Positions 1,120-13,095 of a DNA stretch of 15,350 nucleotides are shown in pieces. How positions within the stretch are numbered: the first letter of the stretch is position 1; each line of letters begins with the position of its first letter. The position numbers and the translations under genes are program-made. This stretch comes from Candidatus Heimdallarchaeota archaeon. GTDB lineage: Archaea; Asgardarchaeota; Heimdallarchaeia; Heimdallarchaeales; Heimdallarchaeaceae. Under the pieces are notes generated by a model. It saw only the letters and a program-made list of their open reading frames with translations. It searched no databases and had not been told where the DNA came from. Location of the stretch: contig JAAFKJ010000056.1 in NCBI GenBank assembly GCA_021399395.1, positions 1 to 15,350 on the forward strand, written 5' to 3'.

Positions 1120-1141
1120 ATAAAAAATATGTGTGAAAGTG

Positions 1142-2341
1142 ATGACTACTGTCTTAAGGACTGAGCGGATAAAAGTGCGAACAAGTTTCACACTAATGCA
1201 GTTGGCAAGACAGAGCAAAAACCTGTACAACTATGGAAATTATATTATCAAAAAGCAACTGAATTATAACAATTATATGACCTCAGAGTATGAGTTGGTG
1301 AATATGGTACGTTATCATCCTTGCTACACTAAGTTCATCCCTCATTCAGCACAGCAAACCATTAAATTTTTAGCAAAAGACTGGAAAGCTTACTTTCGTG
1401 CAAAAAAAGAGTACCAGAAGAACCCCACCAAGTTCTTCTCTAAACCTAAAGCACCGAAATACAAGAACAAACAAGGGTTCCACACAATCTACCTGACTGC
1501 TAACCAAGTGAGATTGAAGGGTGAAGGATGGTTACATTTTCACAAGAAAATCGGTCTAAAAGTAAAAACAAGACTAAATGAGAGGACAAAAATCAACCAT
1601 GCTCGCTTACTCCCAAGGGGAACATGTTTTATCTTAGAGATAATCTATGAACAGAAACTAGATCCCCCCTCCTCATCTCAACCTACAAATATCCTTGCCA
1701 TAGATTTGGGAGTGAATAACCTTTTGACTTGTGTTAGTAATGTTCTTCCCCCTTTCCTTGTCAAAGGAAGGAAAATTAAGGCTATCAACCAGTGGTACAA
1801 CAAGGAACGCTCTCGTCTCCAATCTATCTACGACCTGCAAAGGTTAAACGAGTATGGTCAAAAAATGAAGAAGATCATAGATAAACGTTGCCAACAGGTG
1901 GAATATTACCTGCATAAAGCTTCACGTCTTATTATTGACAATTGTCTGAAGTATGGGATCGACACTATAGTTGTTGGTTATAACAAGAAATGGAAGCAAA
2001 GGAGTAAGATGGGAAAGAGGAATAACCAGAATTTTGTCAATATACCCTTCTTAACTTTATTGCGAAAACTCCAGTATAAGGCAGAAGAAGTAAGTATTAC
2101 GGTCATACCTATAGAAGAGAAATACACCTCTAAATGCTCTTTCTTAGATAATGAATCTATCCGCGAACATTCTAAGTATTTAGGACGAAGGAAGAAACGA
2201 GGTCTATTCAAAAGTTCAAAAGGTGTGTTGCTCAACGCTGATTGCAATGCAGCAGGCAACATCGGCAGAAAAGTATTCCCGCTGGTCTTCACCTCCGGGA
2301 CAGTGGATGCTGTGAGTCATCCTACCTGTTTGACTGTCTAG
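1142..2341 (+). CDS. tnpB: TnpB RNA-guided endonuclease (rearranged RuvC-II type)
   Basis: N-terminal SKNLYNY, SAQQTIK and PKYK motifs; RuvC-I ILAIDLGVNN (Asp 1703-1705); YLHKASR; IVVGYNKKWKQ; NNQNFVNIPF; EEKYTSKCSFLD; RuvC-III NADCNAAGNI (Asp 2240-2242). Start is ATG 1142 or GTG 1133. Confidence 0.95.
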   Translation: MTTVLRTERIKVRTSFTLMQLARQSKNLYNYGNYIIKKQLNYNNYMTSEYELVNMVRYHPCYTKFIPHSAQQTIKFLAKDWKAYFRAKKEYQKNPTKFFSKPKAPKYKNKQGFHTIYLTANQVRLKGEGWLHFHKKIGLKVKTRLNERTKINHARLLPRGTCFILEIIYEQKLDPPSSSQPTNILAIDLGVNNLLTCVSNVLPPFLVKGRKIKAINQWYNKERSRLQSIYDLQRLNEYGQKMKKIIDKRCQQVEYYLHKASRLIIDNCLKYGIDTIVVGYNKKWKQRSKMGKRNNQNFVNIPFLTLLRKLQYKAEEVSITVIPIEEKYTSKCSFLDNESIREHSKYLGRRKKRGLFKSSKGVLLNADCNAAGNIGRKVFPLVFTSGTVDAVSHPTCLTV

Positions 2342-2412
2342 GGTAACCGAAGCAGAAATGAGAACAGGTGCAAGATAGTTCAAATCGGAAACGGTGGGAA
2401 ATATCACTCATA
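2299..2412 (+). ncRNA. Predicted TnpB omegaRNA (right-end RNA) scaffold overlapping the tnpB 3' end
   Basis: Nested stems GACAGT(2299-2304)/ACTGTC(2333-2338) and GGATG(2305-2309)/CATCC(2318-2322), plus pseudoknot-compatible ACCTGTT(2324-2330)/AACAGGT(2363-2369). The location matches known omegaRNAs; the 5' and 3' limits are uncertain. Confidence 0.6.
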
Positions 2413-2417
2413 AAAAA
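2412..2417 (-). terminator. Oligo-T terminator of the lhr / AlkZ-repeat transcription unit
   Basis: TTTTTT on the minus strand about 16 nt after the stop codon at 2436-2434. Confidence 0.4.
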
Positions 2418-2433
2418 GATATCTCCTTATTTG

Positions 2434-4773
2434 TTAAAGAATCTGGTAATCTATTTGCATATTGTTCAAAAGATTCATATATTCTCTACCACTTTCGGTT
2501 GTCAAAGCTGTTCCATTAATTTGTTTAATCCTTAATATGCGATTATGCTCTTCTTTGGTTTTAATGAAGTATTCTTGAATCGAACTAAGTATGAGCATAA
2601 GAGTATGAGAATCAGTAAACTCTGGAAGAATCTCTATATTATTGACATATTCTATTTTATCTGCCTTCTTAATATGTAGAGCAGCTATTGGCTCACCATT
2701 CATTAAGATGATTTCACCAAATTCCGTTGGGAGGGGTCTTGAAAAAAGTGATCTAAGTCTGAACCGTTTAAGCAAATAATTCTTGTATAGAATGAGTAGA
2801 GGATCATTTCGAGAGAGATAAGTTAGGTTTACATCTTCAGAACTTGGATCCTCTTCTTTTTGATAGATATATCCTATAATTTTCTTTTCAATTTCCTTAG
2901 TTGTAAACTTAACCTCAGACTCATCTTCGAAGAATTTTCCAGAACGGATACCTTTAGAAGCAATTAATTCCTTAAGATATACTTCCAATTGAGTATTTGA
3001 TAGACCAGTAAGATTGGCCAACTGTCTGATGCTTAGAGGTAAATTAGTTGAGAATATCCTATAAAGAACTTCTAACCAAGCTTCTCTTTGTGTTTTCACA
3101 GATTTTGTTGCAGTAGTAGCTAGGAACTTTGAAGTTAATTCCCAAACTATCTGTTTGGAAACCGATTTAGTTTGAACTATTTCATGAGCTATTTCTAACC
3201 TTTGTAGAGCAGAGAGTAACACTCTGTTTGATAGGTTCAGCGATGATTTCAATTGCGAGAAATTTATACGTTCTTTTTGTTTAATCAAATTTAGTACTCG
3301 TTCTTCTAGAACACCATAATGTCTTGAAGGGCTTAATTTAGCAAAAACCATGTAATCTACGGACACTATATTTCCCCTATAAAATGCGCCGTACTTTCCA
3401 GTAACCACTTGTTTATTGATTATTAAATCATCAACAATTGAGTCTTTCTTTGATGAAATTCGTGCTAATAACGAATTTAAGGGGAGTGGTATTCCTAAAG
3501 AAGTTAATCCATTCATAACACCTTTTTTACTCAAGAAGTTGTATTTTTGACTCAGATGTTGTATATCGAGAAGAAGAGGAAAAACATCTCTTAAGAAGAA
3601 TAACTGACTTTCTTCATCAGTTTGAGGTTTTGCGGTAAGATGGGATACTAAACCTGAAGTGCGCACTTGGTATCCTCTCTTTGATAGTATATTCGCAAGA
3701 ATCTTAGATTGGCTTTCAATTGCTTCTGATTGGAGTTCAGGAAAAACAAGTATCTTACCTTTATTTTCTGCATACTCTTGAATCTTATTTCTTATTTCTA
3801 GCTCATTATTTGTAAATTCAGGTGTTTTAACAAGATTAGTGATATGTAAATTATCTCCATCTACTTTGTATTCAAAAGAACAAACAGGCTTACCATTAAC
3901 CAAAACCAATTCATCTAGTACTTCGTCAAGATTTAGAAAATCTGCAGAAGACCAGTATTCAGCAAGTGGATCGGATAGTGGGAGTATTTCTTTATTCATT
4001 GTTTTTTTCTGATCGTATTTCTCTAAGAAAGAATCTAGATACTCAAGCTCATCAGATACCATAAATGCTTCATAACTTGAATTTTCTATGAAATTACCTC
4101 TGACTATTTTCTTATTCTCATAAAGTTCAATTATGCAGGTGCTTATTCTACCTCCACTCATATTTAGAATTCTAATTATCTGAGGAACTGTAATTGGACC
4201 AAAGTTTTTGATGACTAAGTAGATAAGGTCGGAAGTAGCTAAAGCTTTACTCGACTTCGATTCATCTAAAAGTAATTTACTTGAGAATATCGTCCAGTAT
4301 GTTCCATCATAGAACATATAAATTTGAAAGTTTGTACGAAGTTCTGTTAGTATCTCCATAACTTCTTCTTTTGAAATTTCAAACGTTTCCATGATTTTCT
4401 GACGAGTTGATGATCCCCCTTCTTGTAAGAATTCAAGAACTGTTTTGGTCAAAGGTTTCTTGTATTGAATAGTATCTTTAGCGTAGATTTTGCTATAAAT
4501 GTGGAGATTATCTCGACCAACATAAGCAAGTTTACCTTCCTTAAATGGGGCATGAACAAGATGTTTATTCTTAATTAGAGAATTTACTAAACCTGAGGAG
4601 AACGTTCTCATTCTAACAAAAAGTGATTCAATATCTTGGAACACTATTACATTGTTAACTATCGTAATAGCATGACTATAATTTACACCTTTATATTCAC
4701 CGTCAATATTTTGTTTTTCTACCAGATATCTGGCAAGTTGATCCAATGAAAGAGAATATTTTGTTATTGACAT
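2434..4773 (-). CDS. Protein with two tandem AlkZ/YcaQ (HTH_42)-like winged-helix repeats, paralogous to the Lhr C-terminal extension
   Basis: Repeat A: FQDIESLFVRM..LIKNKHLV..GKLAYV, KNFGPITVPQI, ILPLSDPL, VLVNGKPVC. Repeat B: NSLLARI..LIINKQVVTG, LPLSIRQLANLTGL, YLSRNDPL, ILMNGEPIA. These resemble AlkZ/YcaQ signatures (GPxT, LLxxxDP, hhhDGxhhG) and match segments of the adjacent Lhr tail. Confidence 0.7.
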   Translation of the reverse strand: MSITKYSLSLDQLARYLVEKQNIDGEYKGVNYSHAITIVNNVIVFQDIESLFVRMRTFSSGLVNSLIKNKHLVHAPFKEGKLAYVGRDNLHIYSKIYAKDTIQYKKPLTKTVLEFLQEGGSSTRQKIMETFEISKEEVMEILTELRTNFQIYMFYDGTYWTIFSSKLLLDESKSSKALATSDLIYLVIKNFGPITVPQIIRILNMSGGRISTCIIELYENKKIVRGNFIENSSYEAFMVSDELEYLDSFLEKYDQKKTMNKEILPLSDPLAEYWSSADFLNLDEVLDELVLVNGKPVCSFEYKVDGDNLHITNLVKTPEFTNNELEIRNKIQEYAENKGKILVFPELQSEAIESQSKILANILSKRGYQVRTSGLVSHLTAKPQTDEESQLFFLRDVFPLLLDIQHLSQKYNFLSKKGVMNGLTSLGIPLPLNSLLARISSKKDSIVDDLIINKQVVTGKYGAFYRGNIVSVDYMVFAKLSPSRHYGVLEERVLNLIKQKERINFSQLKSSLNLSNRVLLSALQRLEIAHEIVQTKSVSKQIVWELTSKFLATTATKSVKTQREAWLEVLYRIFSTNLPLSIRQLANLTGLSNTQLEVYLKELIASKGIRSGKFFEDESEVKFTTKEIEKKIIGYIYQKEEDPSSEDVNLTYLSRNDPLLILYKNYLLKRFRLRSLFSRPLPTEFGEIILMNGEPIAALHIKKADKIEYVNNIEILPEFTDSHTLMLILSSIQEYFIKTKEEHNRILRIKQINGTALTTESGREYMNLLNNMQIDYQIL

Positions 4774-7700
4774 TTATTTCACCAGAGAGTGTGATGGCAT
4801 ACCATTTATCTTCTCAACAACTATTGAATTGACATCTATATTTTCAAGATTAGGTATTGTTTCCATTGCATTTATCACATAGTTTAGAGAACTATCAGCA
4901 TGAATCCAAGGTGCTAGTATAATGTTTTTCATAATCATCCGTTTCTGATTCATACTATCAACATTACATTGAGCAGCAATTTTCTGATCAAGAACTATAA
5001 TGTAATTCTCATCAGATACACCAAATTGCTCGTAAAGATTGGCTTTCAACACAACAGTCGCTAAATCTTTTGGATTCAGCAGGTAATATCTTTCTCGCTC
5101 CTCCTTTTTAGAATAGTCCACTTTACTATCGTCTTTTTTCTCTAACATAATAAGAGAGTCATAATTTTCTTGTGTTGTATAAAAGAATCTTGTATCGTTT
5201 TCTACGAACCGTCCGCCTAGAATCCTTTCTTCATCAATCAATGACGCTAATACCTCTTTGACTCTTATTTTAGTTAGAACACCTGGTATTACAGCTCGCT
5301 GTGAAATTTGTCCCTCCGAAATGACTCCTAAGCTCCCCATAATATCATAGACATACTCTTTTCTAACAACAGAGATATCCTTGTTAATTTCAGGAATAAA
5401 GGAATCAATGTCCCAATATTCTTGGGGTTCAAAGAGATTATTGATAGATTCAATTCCAATAAGCATATTCTCTTCTAGAATTCGAAGCGCAGCCTTAAAT
5501 GTAGCAGCAGTTCCTTCCCAATTATCTAAGAGGCTCTGTTTGTTTGCTATACCTTTCTTGATTCTGTTGTATATTTTTTCTGATTCACCTTTCATCTTTC
5601 TTCTAATTCTTATACCGCTTTTCCTATATCTTGCGAATTGAATCGAGTAAAATACATTATTCTGACAAATAACATCTCTATTTTTTAGAAGTTGATTTAG
5701 AAGATAGACTATAACTGAAATCATATTTTCTGGATATCTTGAAATAATTTCTTTGAGATCAATGAATCCAAAGTGACTAATCATTTGTAGAAGATTTTCC
5801 GAGTTTAATGCTGGAGTCTGTTTCTTTAACCACAGGTTCTCCATTATATTCCGGTCTATCAATCTTCGAGAGAAGACTTTAGTTACAGTATCTCCACCAA
5901 TCAGAGTGTCCTTTACTAATTTGAATCCAGTTTTGATTAGGGTATCACGTATGAATTGATTACTTTTGGAAAGAACTGATTTACCATTTATGTCCTCGAT
6001 TTGCAGACTAAGTACTCTATGAATCTTTCTTGTATAATTAACAAGTTCTGCTGCCAGTTTCTGTATTATTATTGAGTTGTAAATGATGGAATTGTTTAAT
6101 TTTAAGTCGTAAACTTGAAGATATTGTCCCTTGTGTAGCTTATATTCAATTGAGCCAACCATTTCTCCGTCCAATAAAACTGGGTCAATCTGACCTTCAC
6201 CATAGATATCTCTAAGATGCAACCTCATACCTAATTTTGTGAAAGGATCGTCTCGCGGAAGGATGACTATTTTCTCTTCTTCACTCAGGGCTATGTTAAT
6301 AAGATCTGTTTTAATCTTTACAATCTCATCAAATCTTTCATTGGTCATGTAATAGTTGGTTTCTCTTTCTGTTAGCTTTTTCTCGATAATTTTATTGCTC
6401 TTGAGAAGGTTTTTGATAATTTTCTCAGTATCATTATATCTAAGTCCCAATAGATGGGTAAGTTCTATTAGAGAAACAGGTCCTAAAGAGCGAATGGATT
6501 TTAACATTATAAATTCTTGACTTTTGTCAATTGAAGGTAGTTTATCTACAGTAACATATCTCTCAGAGATATCATACACATTTGGAATAAACTGACGAGG
6601 AATAAATGTCTCAGATGTTACAGATTTTCTAACTAAATATAGCGTTTTATCAAGAATCATTAAGCTCTCTTGAACAATATCATCATCTAAATCTGTTAGC
6701 TCTTTTACTTCTCTTTTAGTCAGAGGCCCATATTTTCTAATGGTTGAAATAATCTTCTCTTCAACTTTAGTTAACTGAAAAGGTTCCCTATAAACTACAT
6801 AATAGTATTGAAACATTTCTCGACTGACATATGCAAGCCTTCTGTGGCTAAATCTCCCTTGTATAATCTCGTTCTTCTCAATCAAATCTCTAATCCAATC
6901 TATCTCATAATCTTGTATGCGAACTGAAAGAGAACTTAAGTCTTCGATTGTACCAAAATTATTCAAAAGGTTCAGAATATTATCTTTTCCTATCAATTTT
7001 GCTTTCAGAAAATCATCTACCGCAAATAGATAGTGGATGAAATTTAGTTCTTCAGGAGTGAGAATTATAGAATCAGGTTTTCTGTTGCTTAAGTTCCTAA
7101 GAAGTTCTCTATCTTCTAGTCGGATATATTGGTCCTCTAGTGAAGACTCAATTATCTTCCCCTTCAATACACGATTTTGACTTTGTAATTCAGAGAGAGC
7201 TCGTTGTACTTTTTCTTCTTCAATACGAAGATATTCCAAAATCTGGTGCAATGTTGAAGGTCCATTAACTTTCAAAAATCTTAGGAGTACCTTCTTCAAA
7301 CATTCTTCAGGGTCAAGTTTCTTTGCTTCTTGAAACAGCTGTTTAGGGATAACTTTCTCTGCTAAGGCATACTTGTTTCTCACTCTTCCCCCATACAATT
7401 CATAATCTGTTCTGGTTATGAGCATAGCTCTTTCAAGCTTCTCAATATGTTTTTGTAAAGTTTTGATGGGGACATCTGTTTCTTCTGATAAATTGTTAAG
7501 TGAAATCGGAGATTTATCTTTCAGAACCTCTAGAATTGTTTTATCAATTTCGTCTTCATCTAGTGTTTTTACATATAAATTCCAATATAGTTGAAAATTA
7601 TTAATTGGTATTGAACGTCTGTCACCTTTTGCTACATAAATTTCAACAAATTCACCAGAGTTGTGTAAAGCTAAAGACCAAGCTTGAATCTGCTTTGCGT

Positions 7701-10500
7701 CAACTATGCTTAGATGATAAATACTAGGAGAAACACTTTCTAGTGTCTTTACTGGTGCAACAGATTTTATGGCATTTCTCAGATGTTTCACCGAAGAAAT
7801 CGGTAAATCTTTGTTTTTGTAGCTACGATTATTGAATATCCTTGTGACTAGCTCCTCATTAAACAAAGTCTCTTTTGTTCCTTCTTTTCCAAATACTTTA
7901 GCTAGTACTTGTTGGTGGAGTTCTCTTAATAGTGCGCTTCTATCTGAAATTTGGACAATATCTGAGACTCCTAATAATACTATACCATGAGCAAAGGGGC
8001 TTGGTATATCTGACAGAGGTGTAATCACATATTCAAATTCGTTTTTCTGTAATTTTTCAAGAACCACTAAACTATTAGTTAGATCCATGTAATCTCTTAA
8101 TATTTCTCTATAAGTTTCTTTGATAACACAGAAATCATCCATGTTTCTCAAAGTAGTAAATATCCTTCGTGCATACATGGTTTGTCGAGATACAGGAATG
8201 GTTCTATCTCTGATTCTTCTCAGAATCATTAGTGCTCTATTCGCAACATGCCTAAAACGGGTCAAGAAGAGTTCAGTATTAATTATGGCAGTCTTTAGTA
8301 TATTCTCAAGATTGTCTACTTTTATCAGACCCGGAATAATTGATGTATCAACAATCTTGTCAGCAGGTAGCATCAAAACAAAACCATTATCATTCACAGC
8401 TGAACCAACATCTGAGTCAAGTTGGGAACCTATTGCATATGCGAACGCCCTTGAGAGAGCATCGTTTACTCTTCGTCCATAATAGCCATGAAATACAAGA
8501 ACCATTCTTCCTTGTGGATCGATAAAAGATTCTACCAAGAGTTTCTTATCACTCGGAGTTACATTCAGAAACATGAGCTGTTCTTTGACATAATCTACAA
8601 TAGTTTGAGCTATAACATTATCTACTTGGAATGACCTTTCTATCCACTCGGTGACAGTTTTCTCCTCTTCCTTTTGTACTTTCTGAGCTACAACTTCAAT
8701 GAACCGCCCAATTTGTTGTGATAATTCAAAAGATCTAGGTAATTCTTCTCCAACCCAGTTCGGTATAGTAGGACGTTTACCAAATGCTTCAGACACAACA
8801 ACTTTGGAGCCTACAGTTCTTTTGAATTGATATGTGTGGCTCCCCAGTACAAATACATCTCCTGGTGTCAGTCTTTCTACAAAGCCCTCTGATAGTCTAC
8901 CTAGCCTTGTTCTATAAGTTTCTAATTCCACTCTATAATCAGCATTTTCTGGAATTGTTCCAAGGTTTGTATAAAAAGTCAATCGTGATCCTTTCTTTTT
9001 ACCAAAAGCATTTTCCTTGTGATCATACCAGATTTTTCTGTAAATCTTTCGTTCTTCAACCTCTAAGTTGTAGCCACCTAAATATTCCAGAACCTTTTGA
9101 TAGTCATCAAAATCTAGTGAATGATAATTGTATGATTTTCTTATTAAGGAGTAAGCTTCATCCACACTCCATCTTTTCATCAAGGAGATTCCAACAATGA
9201 ACTGTGAAAGAACATCTAAACAATCATGTGGTATCTGAACTTTGTCAATCTCTCTACTGTATGCACTCTTCGTTAGTACTGCACATTCAACAGCATCATC
9301 TCTATCAGTAGTTATTAGTCGTCCTTTAGCTATACGGTCTAATGAATGGCCACTTCTCCCTACTCTTTGAAGATATTTTGCCACTGTCTTCGGTGACCCT
9401 ATCTGGGCTACCAATTCAACACTACCAATATCAATCCCTAACTCTAAAGATGTTGAAGTGACTGCTGCAAGTAATTCATTATTCTTCAACCTATCTTCTA
9501 CATCTAGCCTGATTTCCCTTGAAAGACTGGAATGATGAACTGCTATAGAAGAAGAGTATTCATCTCCTAAGTATTCCTTAAGTTTGAATGAGACATTCTC
9601 GGCACCTTTACGAGTATTTGTGAAAACTATAGATGTTTCATGATCCATAATAAGATCAGAAAGCAGATTGTAGATCCCTTCCTGAATCATGATGTAAGGA
9701 GTGTGGAGGATGTCTTGAACTGGACTTTTTACCTCCAAATCCAATTTCCTTTGAGGAGGTAAATTCGCTATGTAACAGTCATTTTCTTTTCCTTTCTCAT
9801 CCATTCCTACAAGAAATCTAGCTATTTCTTCAATTGGTGCTTGTGTTGCAGATAATCCTATACGAGTAACATGTTTCTCTGCAATCTCTTGCTGTAAGTA
9901 TTCTAGAAATAAGGATAGGAATACCCCCCGTTTATTAGAACTAACCTCATGAATTTCATCTAGCACTATCCATCTGACACTCTTGAGATGTAGAGAGAAT
10001 TTTGGGGAAGTAAGTATTAACCCCAGACTTTCTGGTGTTGTAATCAAGATATGAGGGGGCTTCTTTAGCATACTTGACCTTTCAGCTTGACTTGTATCAC
10101 CTGTTCTAACTCCAACACGAATCTTAGGAGTAACCAAGTTATTTGAGGCTGCTAGTTCTTGAATGCCTTGCAAAGGTTCTTCTAGATTTTTCCTTATATC
10201 ATTTCCTAAGGCTTTCAATGGAGAGATGTAAAGAACGTATATTTCATCCTTCAATGTTCCTGCTTTAGCTTCAATGAAGAGCTCGTTTATAGCTGCTAGA
10301 AATGCTGCAAAGGTTTTCCCAGACCCAGTTGAACTAAAAATCAATGTATTTCTTCGATCATGAATAGAAGGTATAGCATACAATTGAGGAGGAGTAAAAC
10401 CACCAGGAAACTTAGATGTGAACCAATCCCTAATTTCATCTGCTAAGAAGGAATGAATGGAAACTGATGAAGATGGTTCATCTAAGTAATGGATGGTCAT
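4774..10500 (-). CDS. lhr: Lhr-family SF2 DNA/RNA helicase with a C-terminal extension of about 1040 aa made of AlkZ-like winged-helix repeats
   Basis: Q-motif FTPPQ, I SSTGSGKT, Ia YISPLKALGNDI, RTGDT, Ib ITTPESL, II DEIH, III GLSAT, IV VFTNTR, HHSSLS, V TSLELGIDIG, VI LQRVGRSGH. Lhr-typical GTIP, PTIPNWVGE, GRRVNDALSR and PSPFA are also present. The core ends near nt 7900. Confidence 0.95.
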   Translation of the reverse strand: MTIHYLDEPSSSVSIHSFLADEIRDWFTSKFPGGFTPPQLYAIPSIHDRRNTLIFSSTGSGKTFAAFLAAINELFIEAKAGTLKDEIYVLYISPLKALGNDIRKNLEEPLQGIQELAASNNLVTPKIRVGVRTGDTSQAERSSMLKKPPHILITTPESLGLILTSPKFSLHLKSVRWIVLDEIHEVSSNKRGVFLSLFLEYLQQEIAEKHVTRIGLSATQAPIEEIARFLVGMDEKGKENDCYIANLPPQRKLDLEVKSPVQDILHTPYIMIQEGIYNLLSDLIMDHETSIVFTNTRKGAENVSFKLKEYLGDEYSSSIAVHHSSLSREIRLDVEDRLKNNELLAAVTSTSLELGIDIGSVELVAQIGSPKTVAKYLQRVGRSGHSLDRIAKGRLITTDRDDAVECAVLTKSAYSREIDKVQIPHDCLDVLSQFIVGISLMKRWSVDEAYSLIRKSYNYHSLDFDDYQKVLEYLGGYNLEVEERKIYRKIWYDHKENAFGKKKGSRLTFYTNLGTIPENADYRVELETYRTRLGRLSEGFVERLTPGDVFVLGSHTYQFKRTVGSKVVVSEAFGKRPTIPNWVGEELPRSFELSQQIGRFIEVVAQKVQKEEEKTVTEWIERSFQVDNVIAQTIVDYVKEQLMFLNVTPSDKKLLVESFIDPQGRMVLVFHGYYGRRVNDALSRAFAYAIGSQLDSDVGSAVNDNGFVLMLPADKIVDTSIIPGLIKVDNLENILKTAIINTELFLTRFRHVANRALMILRRIRDRTIPVSRQTMYARRIFTTLRNMDDFCVIKETYREILRDYMDLTNSLVVLEKLQKNEFEYVITPLSDIPSPFAHGIVLLGVSDIVQISDRSALLRELHQQVLAKVFGKEGTKETLFNEELVTRIFNNRSYKNKDLPISSVKHLRNAIKSVAPVKTLESVSPSIYHLSIVDAKQIQAWSLALHNSGEFVEIYVAKGDRRSIPINNFQLYWNLYVKTLDEDEIDKTILEVLKDKSPISLNNLSEETDVPIKTLQKHIEKLERAMLITRTDYELYGGRVRNKYALAEKVIPKQLFQEAKKLDPEECLKKVLLRFLKVNGPSTLHQILEYLRIEEEKVQRALSELQSQNRVLKGKIIESSLEDQYIRLEDRELLRNLSNRKPDSIILTPEELNFIHYLFAVDDFLKAKLIGKDNILNLLNNFGTIEDLSSLSVRIQDYEIDWIRDLIEKNEIIQGRFSHRRLAYVSREMFQYYYVVYREPFQLTKVEEKIISTIRKYGPLTKREVKELTDLDDDIVQESLMILDKTLYLVRKSVTSETFIPRQFIPNVYDISERYVTVDKLPSIDKSQEFIMLKSIRSLGPVSLIELTHLLGLRYNDTEKIIKNLLKSNKIIEKKLTERETNYYMTNERFDEIVKIKTDLINIALSEEEKIVILPRDDPFTKLGMRLHLRDIYGEGQIDPVLLDGEMVGSIEYKLHKGQYLQVYDLKLNNSIIYNSIIIQKLAAELVNYTRKIHRVLSLQIEDINGKSVLSKSNQFIRDTLIKTGFKLVKDTLIGGDTVTKVFSRRLIDRNIMENLWLKKQTPALNSENLLQMISHFGFIDLKEIISRYPENMISVIVYLLNQLLKNRDVICQNNVFYSIQFARYRKSGIRIRRKMKGESEKIYNRIKKGIANKQSLLDNWEGTAATFKAALRILEENMLIGIESINNLFEPQEYWDIDSFIPEINKDISVVRKEYVYDIMGSLGVISEGQISQRAVIPGVLTKIRVKEVLASLIDEERILGGRFVENDTRFFYTTQENYDSLIMLEKKDDSKVDYSKKEERERYYLLNPKDLATVVLKANLYEQFGVSDENYIIVLDQKIAAQCNVDSMNQKRMIMKNIILAPWIHADSSLNYVINAMETIPNLENIDVNSIVVEKINGMPSHSLVK

Positions 10501-10527: not shown

Positions 10528-10535
10528 TATTTATA
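10528..10535 (-). promoter_or_regulatory. TATA box (with purine-rich BRE-like sequence) for lhr
   Basis: Minus strand reads AAAGAGA-TATAAATA, ending about 27 nt before ATG 10500. Confidence 0.6.
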
Positions 10536-10579
10536 TCTCTTTATTACGAAGAAACAATTTCGAGAAAAAATTTTGGAAA

Positions 10580-11095
10580 TCAGAGTAAAGATTTCTCTTC
10601 TTCAATTTCTTCATTTGCTTGTTTTTGACCCCATTCCATTACATAAGCTGATTCCCCATCTCTATAATAATGCTTAAACTCCCGTTTGACATAGAAGCCG
10701 AGTTTCTTGTACATTTCAACAGCAGCGATATTCGAAACTCTTACTTCTAAATAAATAGTCTCGACATTATTTTCGATGAGTTTCTGTATCCCATATTTCA
10801 TAATTTTTACCCCCAGTCCTTTTCTTCTGTTTTCAGGGAGTACAGCTATTGAGATTACATGTCCTTTTGCTGGATTTAAGCCTATAAATGTTGAAAAAGG
10901 TCTTTCAACTCTTGAAAGAAGATATCCTAAAACTTTACCGTCTTCTATTCCCACAGCACAAGCAAAGCCAAATTCAGTTAATATTCTATAGAAGAAATCA
11001 AATGAATAGTTTTCTGGGAGACATAACCTATTTATCTTTATGATATCGTTGATGTCGCCAAGTTCTGCTTGTCTTACAATAGTAGATGGTTCCAT
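10580..11095 (-). CDS. ard1: Ard1/Naa10-like N-terminal acetyltransferase (GNAT; often annotated RimI)
   Basis: NRLCLPENY (cf. Naa10 NLxCLPENY), GHVISIAV, acetyl-CoA-binding RRKGLG, LEVRVSN, YYRDGESAY. Confidence 0.92.
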   Translation of the reverse strand: MEPSTIVRQAELGDINDIIKINRLCLPENYSFDFFYRILTEFGFACAVGIEDGKVLGYLLSRVERPFSTFIGLNPAKGHVISIAVLPENRRKGLGVKIMKYGIQKLIENNVETIYLEVRVSNIAAVEMYKKLGFYVKREFKHYYRDGESAYVMEWGQKQANEEIEEEKSLL

Positions 11096-11211
11096 TCTAT
11101 TCTCGGTTTGAATTTAATGAACTCTTTTTTCAACTTTTTGTTGAAGCTTTAAATCGATTACTCGTTTGTAATAATATTCTTAAAGCTAAAAAATGGAAAT
11201 TTCATACCACA

Positions 11212-12489
11212 ATGAACTCTGAGAATGAATCAAGTGAAGATGTAAGTATCTTCCATGAATTAATGAGAAAATTCAGTTATGCAGGGAGTCTTTACGAACA
11301 TTGGATAGACGTATTTGGAATTGAGTACATGTTCAAGTTGATCGATCATCTTCGAATGCCAATGAAATCATTGTGGATACAAGTCAATACAAATAAGATA
11401 GATTTTGATTCTCTTTTGGAGATTTTTGATGACCAAGGGTTTGTGGCTAGAAAACATGAATTATTTGATGATTTCATTAAAGTTGATATTGAGAAAAGAG
11501 AATTTGACGACAAACTAGAAGAAGACATACCAATTATCAAAGTTGACCATGAATCATCTACTGGAATTGCACTTGGTAAAGATGTTCAGACAGCAAATGT
11601 AACAAGTTATGATGAGTTCAATACTGGAGATAAACTGTGTATTTTAGATGGAGCTAGCAATCTGATTGCTAAAGGAGTAGCAGATGTAAATAGTTCAGAG
11701 ATATTGACGTTACCCCAAAGAAATGTTGTTAGTGTCAAGGATTCTATAGCTTATGCACCTCCTTTGACGGAAATGAGGGTTTATCGAAGAGGGTATTTCA
11801 ACATCTTGACTCCCATACAAGCAATTGGAGTGAAGTCTTTACCTTTAGGAATGAAAGATAATATTCTAGTAATGTCAACTGACAAAGGTAATGTTGCGAG
11901 CTACATAGCTGAATTAACCAAGAATAAAGTTCCAATTACAGTTGTAGCTCAAAATGAAATGCAAGTCAAAGCTATTAGAAAAAATCTTGAAAGAGCAAAG
12001 TCAAAAGCTATAAGAGTCCATCACACATCTTTTGGTGCATTTCTGAATGAACGTCATGAACTAAAATATACGGCAGCGTATGTTGAACCTCAAAATTCTC
12101 GAACAGCAATCATACCCGTATTTTCTTCAAATCTTGGATACGGATTATTAAAGAATTTAGCTGAGAAACAGAAGAGAATAATCACCAATCTTTACAAATG
12201 TCTACATAAACAAGCATCCATAGCTTATGTAACACATTCAATAGATTATTTTGAAAATGAAGAAGTTTTCAAAAGCATTTCAGAGAAAGCGTACTACAAG
12301 GTTGTTAAGCACAACGAAGAGATTAACAAACTGAAGGAACAAAACAAAATAAGTTCAAGAGAAATTCCAAAACAATATGCAAAAATTGGAGCAAAACTAA
12401 AGAAATCGACAATATATTTAGATCCAATTACAACAAATAATTCTGGTGGATTTGTAGCTAATTTCAATTTGAAAGAGAAATTAGATTAA
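11212..12489 (+). CDS. PUA-domain RsmB/NOP2/NSUN6-like protein, predicted catalytically inactive
   Basis: N-terminal IQVNTNK (cf. hRVNTLK), PUA-like segment VDHESSTGIALGKDV..GDKLCILD..LIAKG, then a Rossmann methyltransferase layout with degenerate motifs ILVMSTDKGN, VEPQNS, YVTHS..FENE and GGFVA. Start moved to ATG 11212 because the 11086 start overlaps the ard1 start and the divergent promoter. Confidence 0.8.
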   Translation: MNSENESSEDVSIFHELMRKFSYAGSLYEHWIDVFGIEYMFKLIDHLRMPMKSLWIQVNTNKIDFDSLLEIFDDQGFVARKHELFDDFIKVDIEKREFDDKLEEDIPIIKVDHESSTGIALGKDVQTANVTSYDEFNTGDKLCILDGASNLIAKGVADVNSSEILTLPQRNVVSVKDSIAYAPPLTEMRVYRRGYFNILTPIQAIGVKSLPLGMKDNILVMSTDKGNVASYIAELTKNKVPITVVAQNEMQVKAIRKNLERAKSKAIRVHHTSFGAFLNERHELKYTAAYVEPQNSRTAIIPVFSSNLGYGLLKNLAEKQKRIITNLYKCLHKQASIAYVTHSIDYFENEEVFKSISEKAYYKVVKHNEEINKLKEQNKISSREIPKQYAKIGAKLKKSTIYLDPITTNNSGGFVANFNLKEKLD

Positions 12490-12519: not shown

Positions 12520-13095
12520 TTATTGTAAATGAGTATCAAGTTCATTTACTAGCCAGATAAATGCTTCTTTAATCCCTTTTCCATGTAGAATACTTGTGTC
12601 AAAAACTGCAAATGTTCTATCTTTTAGATCAAGATGTAATCCTAGCATCTGAATAAGCAAAGGAGCCTCAACCGCTCCAGGAAGATCCTGTTTATTGGCC
12701 ATGATGAGTGTTGGAACATTCTCCATATACGGATTGTTAAACACGTGTGTTTTGAGAACATCTCTTGCTTCAGGTAATCTTTCAATGTCTGCAGCATCGA
12801 TAACAAAAATAACAGCACTACATCCAGGATAGTGAGCTTCCCATAAGAAACGAAAGTGTGACTGCCCCGCCACATCAATAGCAGTAATAGTCCAACCTTC
12901 AAATTCAAACGACTCAATATTTTGTCCTATGGTTGGAGTTAGATTTTCAGCGAATTTACCAAACCTCATAAATCGGGTTAAGGTGGTCTTTCCTGCTGCG
13001 TCTAAACCCAATATCAAGATCTTTGCTTTCTGCTCTTTCTTAAGCTTCGCTCTCAACCATGAGGAAAAGGACCCGAACATACTCATGTGTGCCAT
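12520..13095 (-). CDS. Arf/Arl-family small GTPase (Asgard Arf-related type)
   Basis: G1 GLDAAGKTT (Arf signature), G2 PTIG, G3 DVAGQ followed by RFLW..Y, G4 ANKQD, G5 DTSI. The N-terminal segment MFGSFSSWLRAKL looks amphipathic. Possible starts are 13095, 13086 and 13080. Confidence 0.93.
   Translation of the reverse strand: MAHMSMFGSFSSWLRAKLKKEQKAKILILGLDAAGKTTLTRFMRFGKFAENLTPTIGQNIESFEFEGWTITAIDVAGQSHFRFLWEAHYPGCSAVIFVIDAADIERLPEARDVLKTHVFNNPYMENVPTLIMANKQDLPGAVEAPLLIQMLGLHLDLKDRTFAVFDTSILHGKGIKEAFIWLVNELDTHLQ

Follow-up and report, generated by a model that had tools for sequence, protein, structure and literature searches.

The stretch of DNA analysed here (the window) comprises 15,350 nucleotides (nt) of contig JAAFKJ010000056.1 from the Candidatus Heimdallarchaeota archaeon assembly GCA_021399395.1 and has a G+C content of about 32–38%. 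On its minus strand it carries a gene for a giant Lhr-type helicase of 1908 amino acids (aa) at positions 4774–10500 and, directly behind it, a gene for a 779-aa protein at positions 2434–4773, referred to below as the partner. Both sets of coordinates agree exactly with those in the initial annotation, a reading of the sequence made by a model, and the two open reading frames abut with an intergenic spacer of zero. The Lhr protein is laid out as a helicase core (aa 1–873) followed by a tail of 1035 aa, and the partner, judged by sequence profiles and a phylogenetic tree, is an ancient collinear paralogue of the two distal modules of this tail (T2 and T3, described below). This architecture, the paralogy of tail and partner and the organization of the two genes in an operon are assigned with high confidence.

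The helicase core, positions 7882–10500 of the minus strand, was delimited with NCBIfam and Pfam and includes RecA1, RecA2, the winged helix that is specific to Lhr and domain 4 (DEAD_assoc). The NCBIfam model NF010338 spans aa 6–873 with 1066.7 bits, against a cut-off of 849, and Pfam recognizes DEAD (aa 36–223, E 3e-29), Helicase_C (aa 278–384), WH_Lhr (aa 415–577, E 8e-31) and DEAD_assoc (aa 649–837, E 5e-50). The translation contains GSGKT and DEIH, the Walker A and DExH motifs of a superfamily-2 RecA1/RecA2 motor. According to these models, which pass their thresholds, the large protein is an Lhr superfamily-2 helicase, as the initial annotation had proposed, and it is predicted to translocate along DNA in the 3'-to-5' direction at the expense of ATP.

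The tail and the partner together resolve into five units, all encoded on the minus strand. The first, T1 (positions 6979–7878, Lhr aa 875–1174), has three winged-helix units and no β-barrel and is classed as a partial AlkZ-like module. It is followed by T2 (5809–6978, Lhr aa 1175–1564) and T3 (4777–5808, Lhr aa 1565–1908), and the partner consists of P1 (3607–4773, aa 1–389) and P2 (2437–3606, aa 390–779); each of these four has three winged helices and a β-barrel. T2 is the paralogue of P1, and T3, the most divergent of the modules, is the paralogue of P2. The pattern was read from the secondary structure of AlphaFold (AF2) models, which were built from orthologue alignments of the tail and of the partner. 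The partner model has an overall predicted local distance difference test score (pLDDT) of 83.7, with a low-confidence linker at residues 376–389 between the two modules; the tail model has a pLDDT of 81.0, with T3 mostly at 82–94. Residues 1–295 of the tail form winged-helix units alone, and the whole tail contains about nine winged-helix units and two barrels. The third winged helix of P2 includes an almost invariant stretch at aa 577–595 (alignment columns N577–Q595).

The barrel region of T2 (window positions 5869–6294, minus strand; Lhr aa ~1403–1544) is among the most conserved stretches of the tail, with invariant columns D544, P545, F546, G550, Y559, G560, G562, D565 and P566 in tail numbering. 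It is also the region of lowest AlphaFold confidence (pLDDT 46–70), whereas the matching region of P1 is modelled confidently, and the T2 barrel may require a partner chain or DNA in order to fold.

Similarity between tail and partner is already detectable in single sequences. BLASTP aligns Lhr residues 1168–1778 with partner residues 28–627 at 20% identity (E 2e-10), and a second, shifted alignment pairs Lhr 1166–1454 with partner 410–702 (E 6e-8), which makes an internal repeat evident. When profiles of 18 orthologous tails (alignment A2) and 19 orthologous partners (alignment A1) were compared by hhalign, 687 columns aligned collinearly (tail 301–1031 against partner 35–760) with a probability of 99.6 and an E value of 3e-24, so the entire partner is the counterpart of Lhr aa ~1175–1905. 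Comparisons between individual modules gave T2 and P1 as the closest pair (E 6e-18), followed by P1 and P2 (8e-13), T2 and P2 (7e-11), T1 and T2 (3e-10), T1 and P1 (6e-10), T1 and P2 (3e-9), T3 and P2 (3e-9), T3 and P1 (2e-7) and T1 and T3 (2e-5); T2 and T3 did not align significantly (E 0.03). The ten motifs on which the initial annotation had based its repeat series are all present and in order (Lhr positions 1186, 1206, 1338, 1413 and 1441; partner positions 46, 66, 190, 263 and 290) and are mutually aligned by BLASTP, and the "about five repeats" that it counted correspond, by hhalign and AF2, to four complete modules and one unit without a barrel.

The fold of these modules is that of the AlkZ (HTH_42) family, again as first suggested, and this is supported by structural matches, by profile alignments and by single-module relatives. 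In a Foldseek search of PDB, the best matches of the partner were AlkX/YcaQ on DNA (9zd6, E 1.9e-11, target template-modelling (TM) score 0.64), the mycobacterial Lhr C-terminal domain (7lhl, E 4e-11) and AlkZ (5uuj, E 1e-10, target TM 0.64), and those of the tail were 7lhl (E 3.7e-12, the top match), 9zd6 (E 2e-10) and 5uuj (E 1.9e-9); generic multi-winged-helix proteins ranked below these with much weaker scores. Within Lhr, the Pfam AlkZ-like model PF06224 matches T1 alone (aa 983–1109, profile positions 86–212 of 329, 37.9 bits against a cut-off of 25.9), and AlkZ-rel (PF24741) matches the same unit with 36.5 bits. The partner profile also retrieved two single-module relatives of 386 aa, P0073 and P0082, which pass the Pfam AlkZ-like model at 76–79 bits and match T1, T2, P1 and P2 by hhalign at E values of 1e-9 to 1e-18: against P0073 and P0082, respectively, T1 gives 1e-12 and 3e-13 and T2 gives 3e-16 and 5e-16, while P1 matches P0082 at 7e-14 and P2 matches P0073 at 1e-18. 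T3 reaches no better than 1e-3 to 4e-3 against these two proteins and is tied to the family through P2. Two sequence hallmarks of the AlkZ/YcaQ family, (I/L)LPxxDP and a subsequent VLxxGxxVG strand, can be read in the modules. The nearest clusters in the Protein Atlas are archaeal and mostly labelled Thermoplasmatota, one of them a 709-aa "hypothetical protein" cluster with AlkZ-like matches on 39% of its members; with a score of 0.94 and recognition below the usual mark, they serve as a lead. For the cluster that includes the partner (P0003), a pre-computed annotation lists Pfam PF27303.1, which is newer than the Pfam copy used here, so a curated family may already exist.

At the junction of the two genes (GGTGAAATAAATG, positions 4771–4783, minus strand), the Lhr stop codon TAA (4774–4776) is followed immediately by the partner ATG (4771–4773), and a Shine-Dalgarno-like GGTGA (4779–4783) lies 5 nt 5' of that ATG. 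GGTGA is complementary to the usual 3' end of archaeal 16S rRNA. Among the ten genes of the window, the partner gene is the only one preceded by GGTG near position -10; the regions upstream of the others are rich in A/T, and several contain TATA-like motifs. In the window and in 20 of the 26 related loci that retain upstream DNA, ATG comes immediately after TAA and in frame with it, and ...TGGTGA(A/T)N precedes them. The other junctions have a 1-nt spacer (L004 and L021), the arrangement TAA-ATT-TCA-GTG (L009, L010 and L026) or, in L022, what looks like an overlap of 8 nt, with TGA as the stop and GGAGAG as the motif. Since three of these junctions (L004, L021 and L022) are out of frame, the pair is not in general a read-through fusion, and translational coupling of two genes is indicated. 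A TATA-like box (ATATAAATA, positions 10528–10536, minus strand) lies ~28–36 nt 5' of the Lhr ATG and may act as an archaeal promoter, and a run of six T residues (positions 2412–2417, minus strand) 17–22 nt 3' of the partner stop is a putative archaeal oligo-T terminator. These signals are consistent with a single promoter and a single terminator for the pair. In 25 of 28 loci the partner gene is succeeded, no more than ~80 nt away, by a Memo-like gene of the same orientation, which may therefore belong to the transcription unit as well.

A search of a database clustered at 90% identity found 33 relatives of the partner at E<=1e-3, which are 42–100% identical to it and ~615–789 aa long, except for one fragment of 429 aa; those that carry an organism name are labelled Heimdallarchaeota, with one labelled Thorarchaeota. 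With one genome taken per species, a scan yielded 28 loci, including two complete chromosomes of Candidatus Heimdallarchaeum, in which the partner is 42% identical to that of the window. Directly upstream of the partner gene and on the same strand, a full Lhr orthologue of ~1908 aa (56–92% identity) is present in 24 of these loci and one clipped by the contig end in two more (L006 and L014); the remaining two (L003 and L027) lack upstream DNA. The pair is thus found in all 26 loci that retain upstream DNA, all from Heimdall-type genomes, and the pairing is conserved among relatives, as the initial annotation had predicted. In the most distant orthologues the tail is 44% and the partner 42% identical to that of the window, and the two diverge at similar rates. 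A search with the tail returned 18 clusters of full-length giant Lhr proteins (1905–1916 aa), one protein of 1256 aa and three distant Lhr proteins of ~1804 aa.

When 1.84 billion representative proteins were searched with a profile, 55 matches at E<=1e-3 were obtained, which comprise stand-alone proteins of 700–814 aa covered nearly from end to end, single-module proteins of 386 aa and Lhr proteins of 1700–2344 aa. A separate homologue search with one protein, P0063, returned the query alone. On present evidence, the family is tied to Asgard-type genomes and probably also to Thermoplasmatota-type ones. We took 18 stand-alone proteins and 13 Lhr tails and built an unrooted maximum-likelihood tree of their two-module units (817 columns; rows picked by hand with short fragments excluded, and two of the tail rows, P0068 and P0069, being fragments classed as tails by their architecture). 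In this tree, a single branch with 100/100 support in 200 bootstrap trees separates the stand-alone proteins, including very distant ones, from the Lhr tails. The nearest relatives of the partner are therefore other stand-alone proteins and not the tail of its neighbour, so the split is old. The initial annotation had derived the partner from a duplication of the Lhr tail: the paralogy with the tail holds, at the E value of 3e-24 given above, but a recent copy of the neighbouring tail is contradicted by the tree. As the tree is unrooted, it fits both directions, release of a tail as a free gene and fusion of a free gene to Lhr. One 2344-aa Lhr from the profile search, P0060, adds to its core and T1-like unit a two-module unit and one more complete AlkZ-like module, and the Pfam AlkZ-like model matches it across four stretches (E 4e-42); this architecture indicates that the number of modules in Lhr tails differs between lineages.

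In AlkZ and YcaQ, the first winged helix holds the catalytic motif, QxQ in AlkZ-like and QxD in YcaQ/AlkX-like proteins (PMC13303869; this and the other papers cited below are represented by excerpts). In E. coli YcaQ (K-12 record) the motif reads Q45-I46-D47. Because alignments of the modules to E. coli sequences were weak or not significant, the register to YcaQ, as well as that to residue D1536 of E. coli Lhr discussed below, was set by eye, for YcaQ with an ungapped anchor on a conserved arginine nine residues downstream that is R54 in both YcaQ and P1. At the motif position, P1 has F45 (19 of 19 orthologues), Q46 (17 of 19) and D47 (16 of 19), T2 has I, E (16 of 18) and D (16 of 18), P2 has P-L-P and T3 has F-I-S. 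Neither QxQ nor QxD was found in any of the modules when registers within one residue of this by-eye anchor were tried, and the canonical motif is missing from all five units. This absence makes binding of DNA, or a part as a scaffold, more likely than AlkZ-type catalysis, and the glycosylase or crosslink-unhooking function that the initial annotation had raised receives no support from the canonical motif.

The C-terminal domain of E. coli Lhr also lacks QxQ, and its reported uracil excision relies on D1536, close to the C-terminus (PMC10953399). By eye, P2 ends in a conserved Q-(L/I)-D-(F/Y), whose D is shared by 16 of 19 orthologues and which recalls the G-L-D-W-G end of E. coli Lhr; T2 has K-D-T-L (D in 15 of 18), and T3 stops right after its barrel and has no such segment. 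No significant alignment was found over the E. coli Lhr C-terminus. The acidic residues of P2, T2 and P1 are candidates for mutagenesis and do not constitute evidence of catalysis.

Heimdall-type Asgard archaea have a conserved two-gene operon for Lhr, with T1, T2 and T3, and for its partner, with P1 and P2, and we propose that the two proteins are made together and in similar amounts. The partner would dock on the tail of Lhr in a similar way to that in which bacterial Lhr forms its tetramer through AlkZ-like C-terminal domains, so that a single helicase motor would bear a platform of four AlkZ-fold modules, which is the number found in the bacterial Lhr tetramer. Such a platform might bind duplex or damaged DNA, at stalled forks, crosslinks, abasic sites or bulky lesions, and might hold or guide the core at the lesion during its 3'-to-5' translocation, in the capacity of a DNA-binding scaffold or sensor and not of an AlkZ-type glycosylase. 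The idea of a hetero-oligomer is based on the gene arrangement and on the known properties of the C-terminal domain in bacterial Lhr, and by this analogy we put a stable physical assembly of Lhr and partner at, or slightly short of, an even chance. The proposal as a whole, that is, a conserved Heimdall operon with paralogous modules, joint assembly and a DNA-binding scaffold, is the best explanation available, and we judge its prospects to be evenly balanced. Complex prediction for T3 (tail alignment 668–1034) with P2 (390–779) gave a score of 0.00 in both runs and, performed without controls, weighs neither way.

Several observations weigh against this proposal. On the side of the fold, the Foldseek queries were the whole models of tail and partner, and the module that is aligned is not specified for each match. 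The partner of the window has no Pfam AlkZ-like match at E<=0.1, and such a match at E<=1e-3 was obtained for 6 of 19 orthologues. Searches of PDB sequences with the profiles gave generic winged-helix proteins alone and did not find AlkZ, YcaQ or Lhr; the module profiles did not match the single sequence of E. coli YcaQ significantly (E 0.08–0.6) and gave weak alignments, with E values of 5e-4 to 0.05, to the C-terminal domain of E. coli Lhr. In these weak matches, T1 aligns to the WH2–WH3 region of the winged helices (E 9e-4), and P1 and T3 align to the last winged helix and the start of the barrel. On the side of function, an acidic residue is retained at the position of YcaQ D47 (D in 16 of 19 P1 and 16 of 18 T2 sequences), so that P1 or T2 may have a non-canonical catalytic site, and the isolated C-terminal domain of bacterial Lhr showed no stable DNA binding in gel shifts, according to the excerpts of PMC8053096 and PMC10953399. 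The conserved pairing is also a weak argument for a functional link, because the whole neighbourhood (SucC, L44e, Rpo6, Arf, RsmB-like, GNAT, Lhr, partner, Memo) is collinear across the related genomes of this single clade; the synteny comparison covers the Heimdall group, and stand-alone relatives occur in further lineages. The binding of the partner to Lhr, finally, is something we infer indirectly, by analogy.

A stronger form of the proposal would make Lhr and partner an obligate hetero-oligomer, with four modules around one motor and a non-canonical site for lesion recognition or base excision in at least one module. The candidates for such a site are P1 with its F-Q-D, T2 with its I-E-D and the conserved, low-confidence loop of the T2 barrel. 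We regard this form as tentative and somewhat unlikely.

Among the explanations that dispense with a joint assembly, the one that survives best places the partner in the same pathway as Lhr and outside any complex: it would be a free lesion-binding protein or a non-canonical DNA glycosylase that is co-expressed with Lhr and acts separately, for example by unhooking or marking damage before or after the helicase acts. AlkZ and YcaQ/AlkX, which have the same fold, are monomeric enzymes (PMC8053096, PMC13303869), and both two-module and single-module relatives of the partner occur as stand-alone proteins. The D1536-dependent uracil-DNA glycosylase activity reported for the E. coli Lhr C-terminal domain arises without QxQ (PMC10953399), and the conserved F-Q-D of P1, the I-E-D of T2 and the P2 end, with its by-eye resemblance to the G-L-D-W-G of E. 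coli Lhr, count in the same direction. A glycosylase of this kind has to be reconciled, however, with the lack of QxQ and QxD in all five modules, with an invariant phenylalanine in P1 at the position equivalent to the catalytic Q, and with registers to YcaQ and D1536 that were set by eye, from a conserved arginine and from C-terminal patterns, with no significant alignment. Moreover, the abutting stop and start codons and the preserved Shine-Dalgarno-like motif indicate co-production, and genes so arranged often, if not always, encode the parts of one complex. On this evidence we consider a free-acting partner rather unlikely.

It is improbable that the partner is a winged-helix protein that regulates transcription, for instance that of its own lhr operon. 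Such a role is suggested by the name "DNA-binding transcriptional regulator GbsR (MarR family)", given by one source to three homologues, and by marginal Pfam matches to HTH_24 and MarR_2 in the winged-helix units, of which HTH_24 reaches E<=1e-3 in 15 of 19 orthologues. Such names derive from generic winged-helix similarity, whereas the partner, at 779 aa, contains two full modules of three winged helices and a barrel, aligns collinearly with the tail of a helicase and has AlkX, AlkZ and the Lhr C-terminal domain as its best fold matches.

It is very improbable that the two open reading frames are in effect one gene, expressed as an Lhr of ~2687 aa through stop-codon read-through or split by an assembly or pseudogene artefact. 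The shared frame and the single TAA between the reading frames in the window and 20 of 26 loci would suit this explanation, but the frame differs in 3 of the 26 (one extra base in L004 and L021, the overlap with a TGA stop in L022), a stop is present in all 26 independent assemblies, the junction keeps an ATG or GTG start and a Shine-Dalgarno-like motif, and the stand-alone relatives of 700–814 aa form their own side of the tree. A fused form of ~2690 aa was found neither among the 22 matches of the tail search (1049–3339 aa) nor among the 55 matches of the profile search, which covered all lengths. Read-through fusion was rejected as a general mechanism on account of the out-of-frame junctions.

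An anti-phage defence or DNA-modification module, in which Lhr would be a DpdJ- or BrxH-like helicase, was rejected and has next to no probability. The PADLOC matches that suggest it (DpdJ, E 1e-149 over aa 19–600; SngC; BrxHI) are confined to the common helicase core; the NCBIfam model for DpdJ reaches 41 bits of the 800 required, whereas the threshold of the Lhr model is passed; and none of the defence models gives a notable match to the partner. The neighbours are housekeeping genes whose order is the same at every locus, and neither dpd nor brx genes occur among them.

The genes around the pair are archaeal and typical of Asgard genomes, and encode an Arf-family small GTPase, RNA polymerase subunit Rpb6/K, ribosomal protein L44e, a GNAT acetyltransferase, a PUA/RsmB-like protein, a Memo-like protein, an ATP-grasp protein similar to succinyl-CoA synthetase and a TnpB (IS605 OrfB). 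The TnpB gene (positions 1133–2341, plus strand), which has Pfam matches to OrfB_IS605 and Cas12f1-like_TNB, separates the partner from the Memo-like gene and is oriented opposite to both. Since Memo adjoins the partner in 25 of 28 loci, TnpB is an insertion particular to the genome of the window; homologues with 37–39% identity are found elsewhere in loci L002, L012 and L025. An Rfam scan of the window did not find a guide RNA accompanying this gene, and the Rfam and tRNA scans of the window gave zero matches altogether.

The Arf-family GTPase (positions 12520–13095, minus strand; Pfam Arf, E 2.5e-43) is 97.9–99.5% identical in 16 of the 19 loci that hold it and 86–90% in the three most distant, and its neighbours in those loci are ~45–90% identical. 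This conservation is unusually strong for an Asgard GTPase. The GNAT acetyltransferase reading frame (positions 10580–11095, minus strand) and the divergent PUA/RsmB-like reading frame (11086–12489, plus strand) overlap, as listed, by 10 nt at their 5' ends, so the real start of the latter gene is probably further downstream. The assignment of its product rests on marginal matches, Methyltr_RsmB-F at 31.6 bits and PUA at 22.8 bits, the latter below its cut-off.

Lhr is widespread, yet neither what it does in the cell nor what its AlkZ-like C-terminal domain is for has been settled, the proposals ranging over oligomerisation, crosslink sensing and uracil excision. The Heimdall modules, which occur in increased number and in part on a co-translated protein of their own, amount to a natural dissection of this domain, and the split permits direct tests of whether AlkZ-fold modules associate with one another, of whether they bind DNA or lesions without QxQ or QxD, and of how they affect the helicase. 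Proteins now annotated as "hypothetical" or "MarR-family regulator" can be named as paralogues of the Lhr tail. With 55 matches in 1.84 billion proteins the family is small, and the impact of these findings is that of a specialist case and not a broad one. If an obligate hetero-oligomer with a non-canonical site were real, it would represent a new helicase-coupled machine for crosslink or lesion repair, in the archaeal lineage closest to eukaryotes.

Among archaeal Lhr proteins, in which the C-terminal domain is missing according to one review of the field (excerpts of PMC7437997), the Heimdall lineage is a case in which that general statement fails. Hajj et al. (2021; PMC8301817) describe an HTH_42 extension on the aLhr2 of Methanomassiliicoccales and an extended aLhr2 in Thermoplasmatales, and list four Heimdallarchaeota proteins as aLhr2. 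A C-terminal extension of the HTH_42 type on an archaeal Lhr is thus common to Methanomassiliicoccales and the lineage studied here; the excerpts of that paper contain no mention of a tail with several modules or of a paralogous gene downstream, and the comparison does not imply that the Lhr of the window belongs to aLhr2. Our searches of the literature on Lhr tails, as represented by the excerpts they returned, found no description of a stand-alone tail paralogue or of the arrangement as a whole, in agreement with the initial annotation, which knew of no such system.

With AlkZ (5uuj) and YcaQ/AlkX (9zd6), members of HTH_42 (PF06224), the Heimdall modules have the fold in common (target TM 0.64–0.67, E 1e-9 to 2e-11). 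Unlike those enzymes, they lack QxQ and QxD, they occur in tandem (two, two and a partial one) and not singly, and they are fused to a helicase or encoded beside one; the partner of the window, in addition, falls below the Pfam threshold for the family.

The closest known relative is bacterial Lhr (bLhr-HTH; M. smegmatis, E. coli; 7lhl), whose C-terminal domain has five winged helices and a barrel, of which the last three winged helices and the barrel resemble AlkZ, and nucleates a homo-tetramer through this AlkZ-like part (PMC8053096). The Lhr cores are alike, both C-terminal extensions combine winged-helix units with an AlkZ-like three-winged-helix-and-barrel part that has no AlkZ QxQ, and 7lhl is the top fold match of the Heimdall tail. 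The definition of bLhr-HTH calls for WH2–WH6 and one barrel after the core; the Heimdall tail does follow the core but contains about nine winged-helix units and two barrels. It is 1035 aa long, as opposed to ~610–660 aa in bacteria, and has two complete AlkZ-fold modules where the bacterial domain has one. Two extra modules, for which the excerpts describe no bacterial counterpart, are carried by a separate, coupled protein, and the host of this system is an Asgard archaeon.

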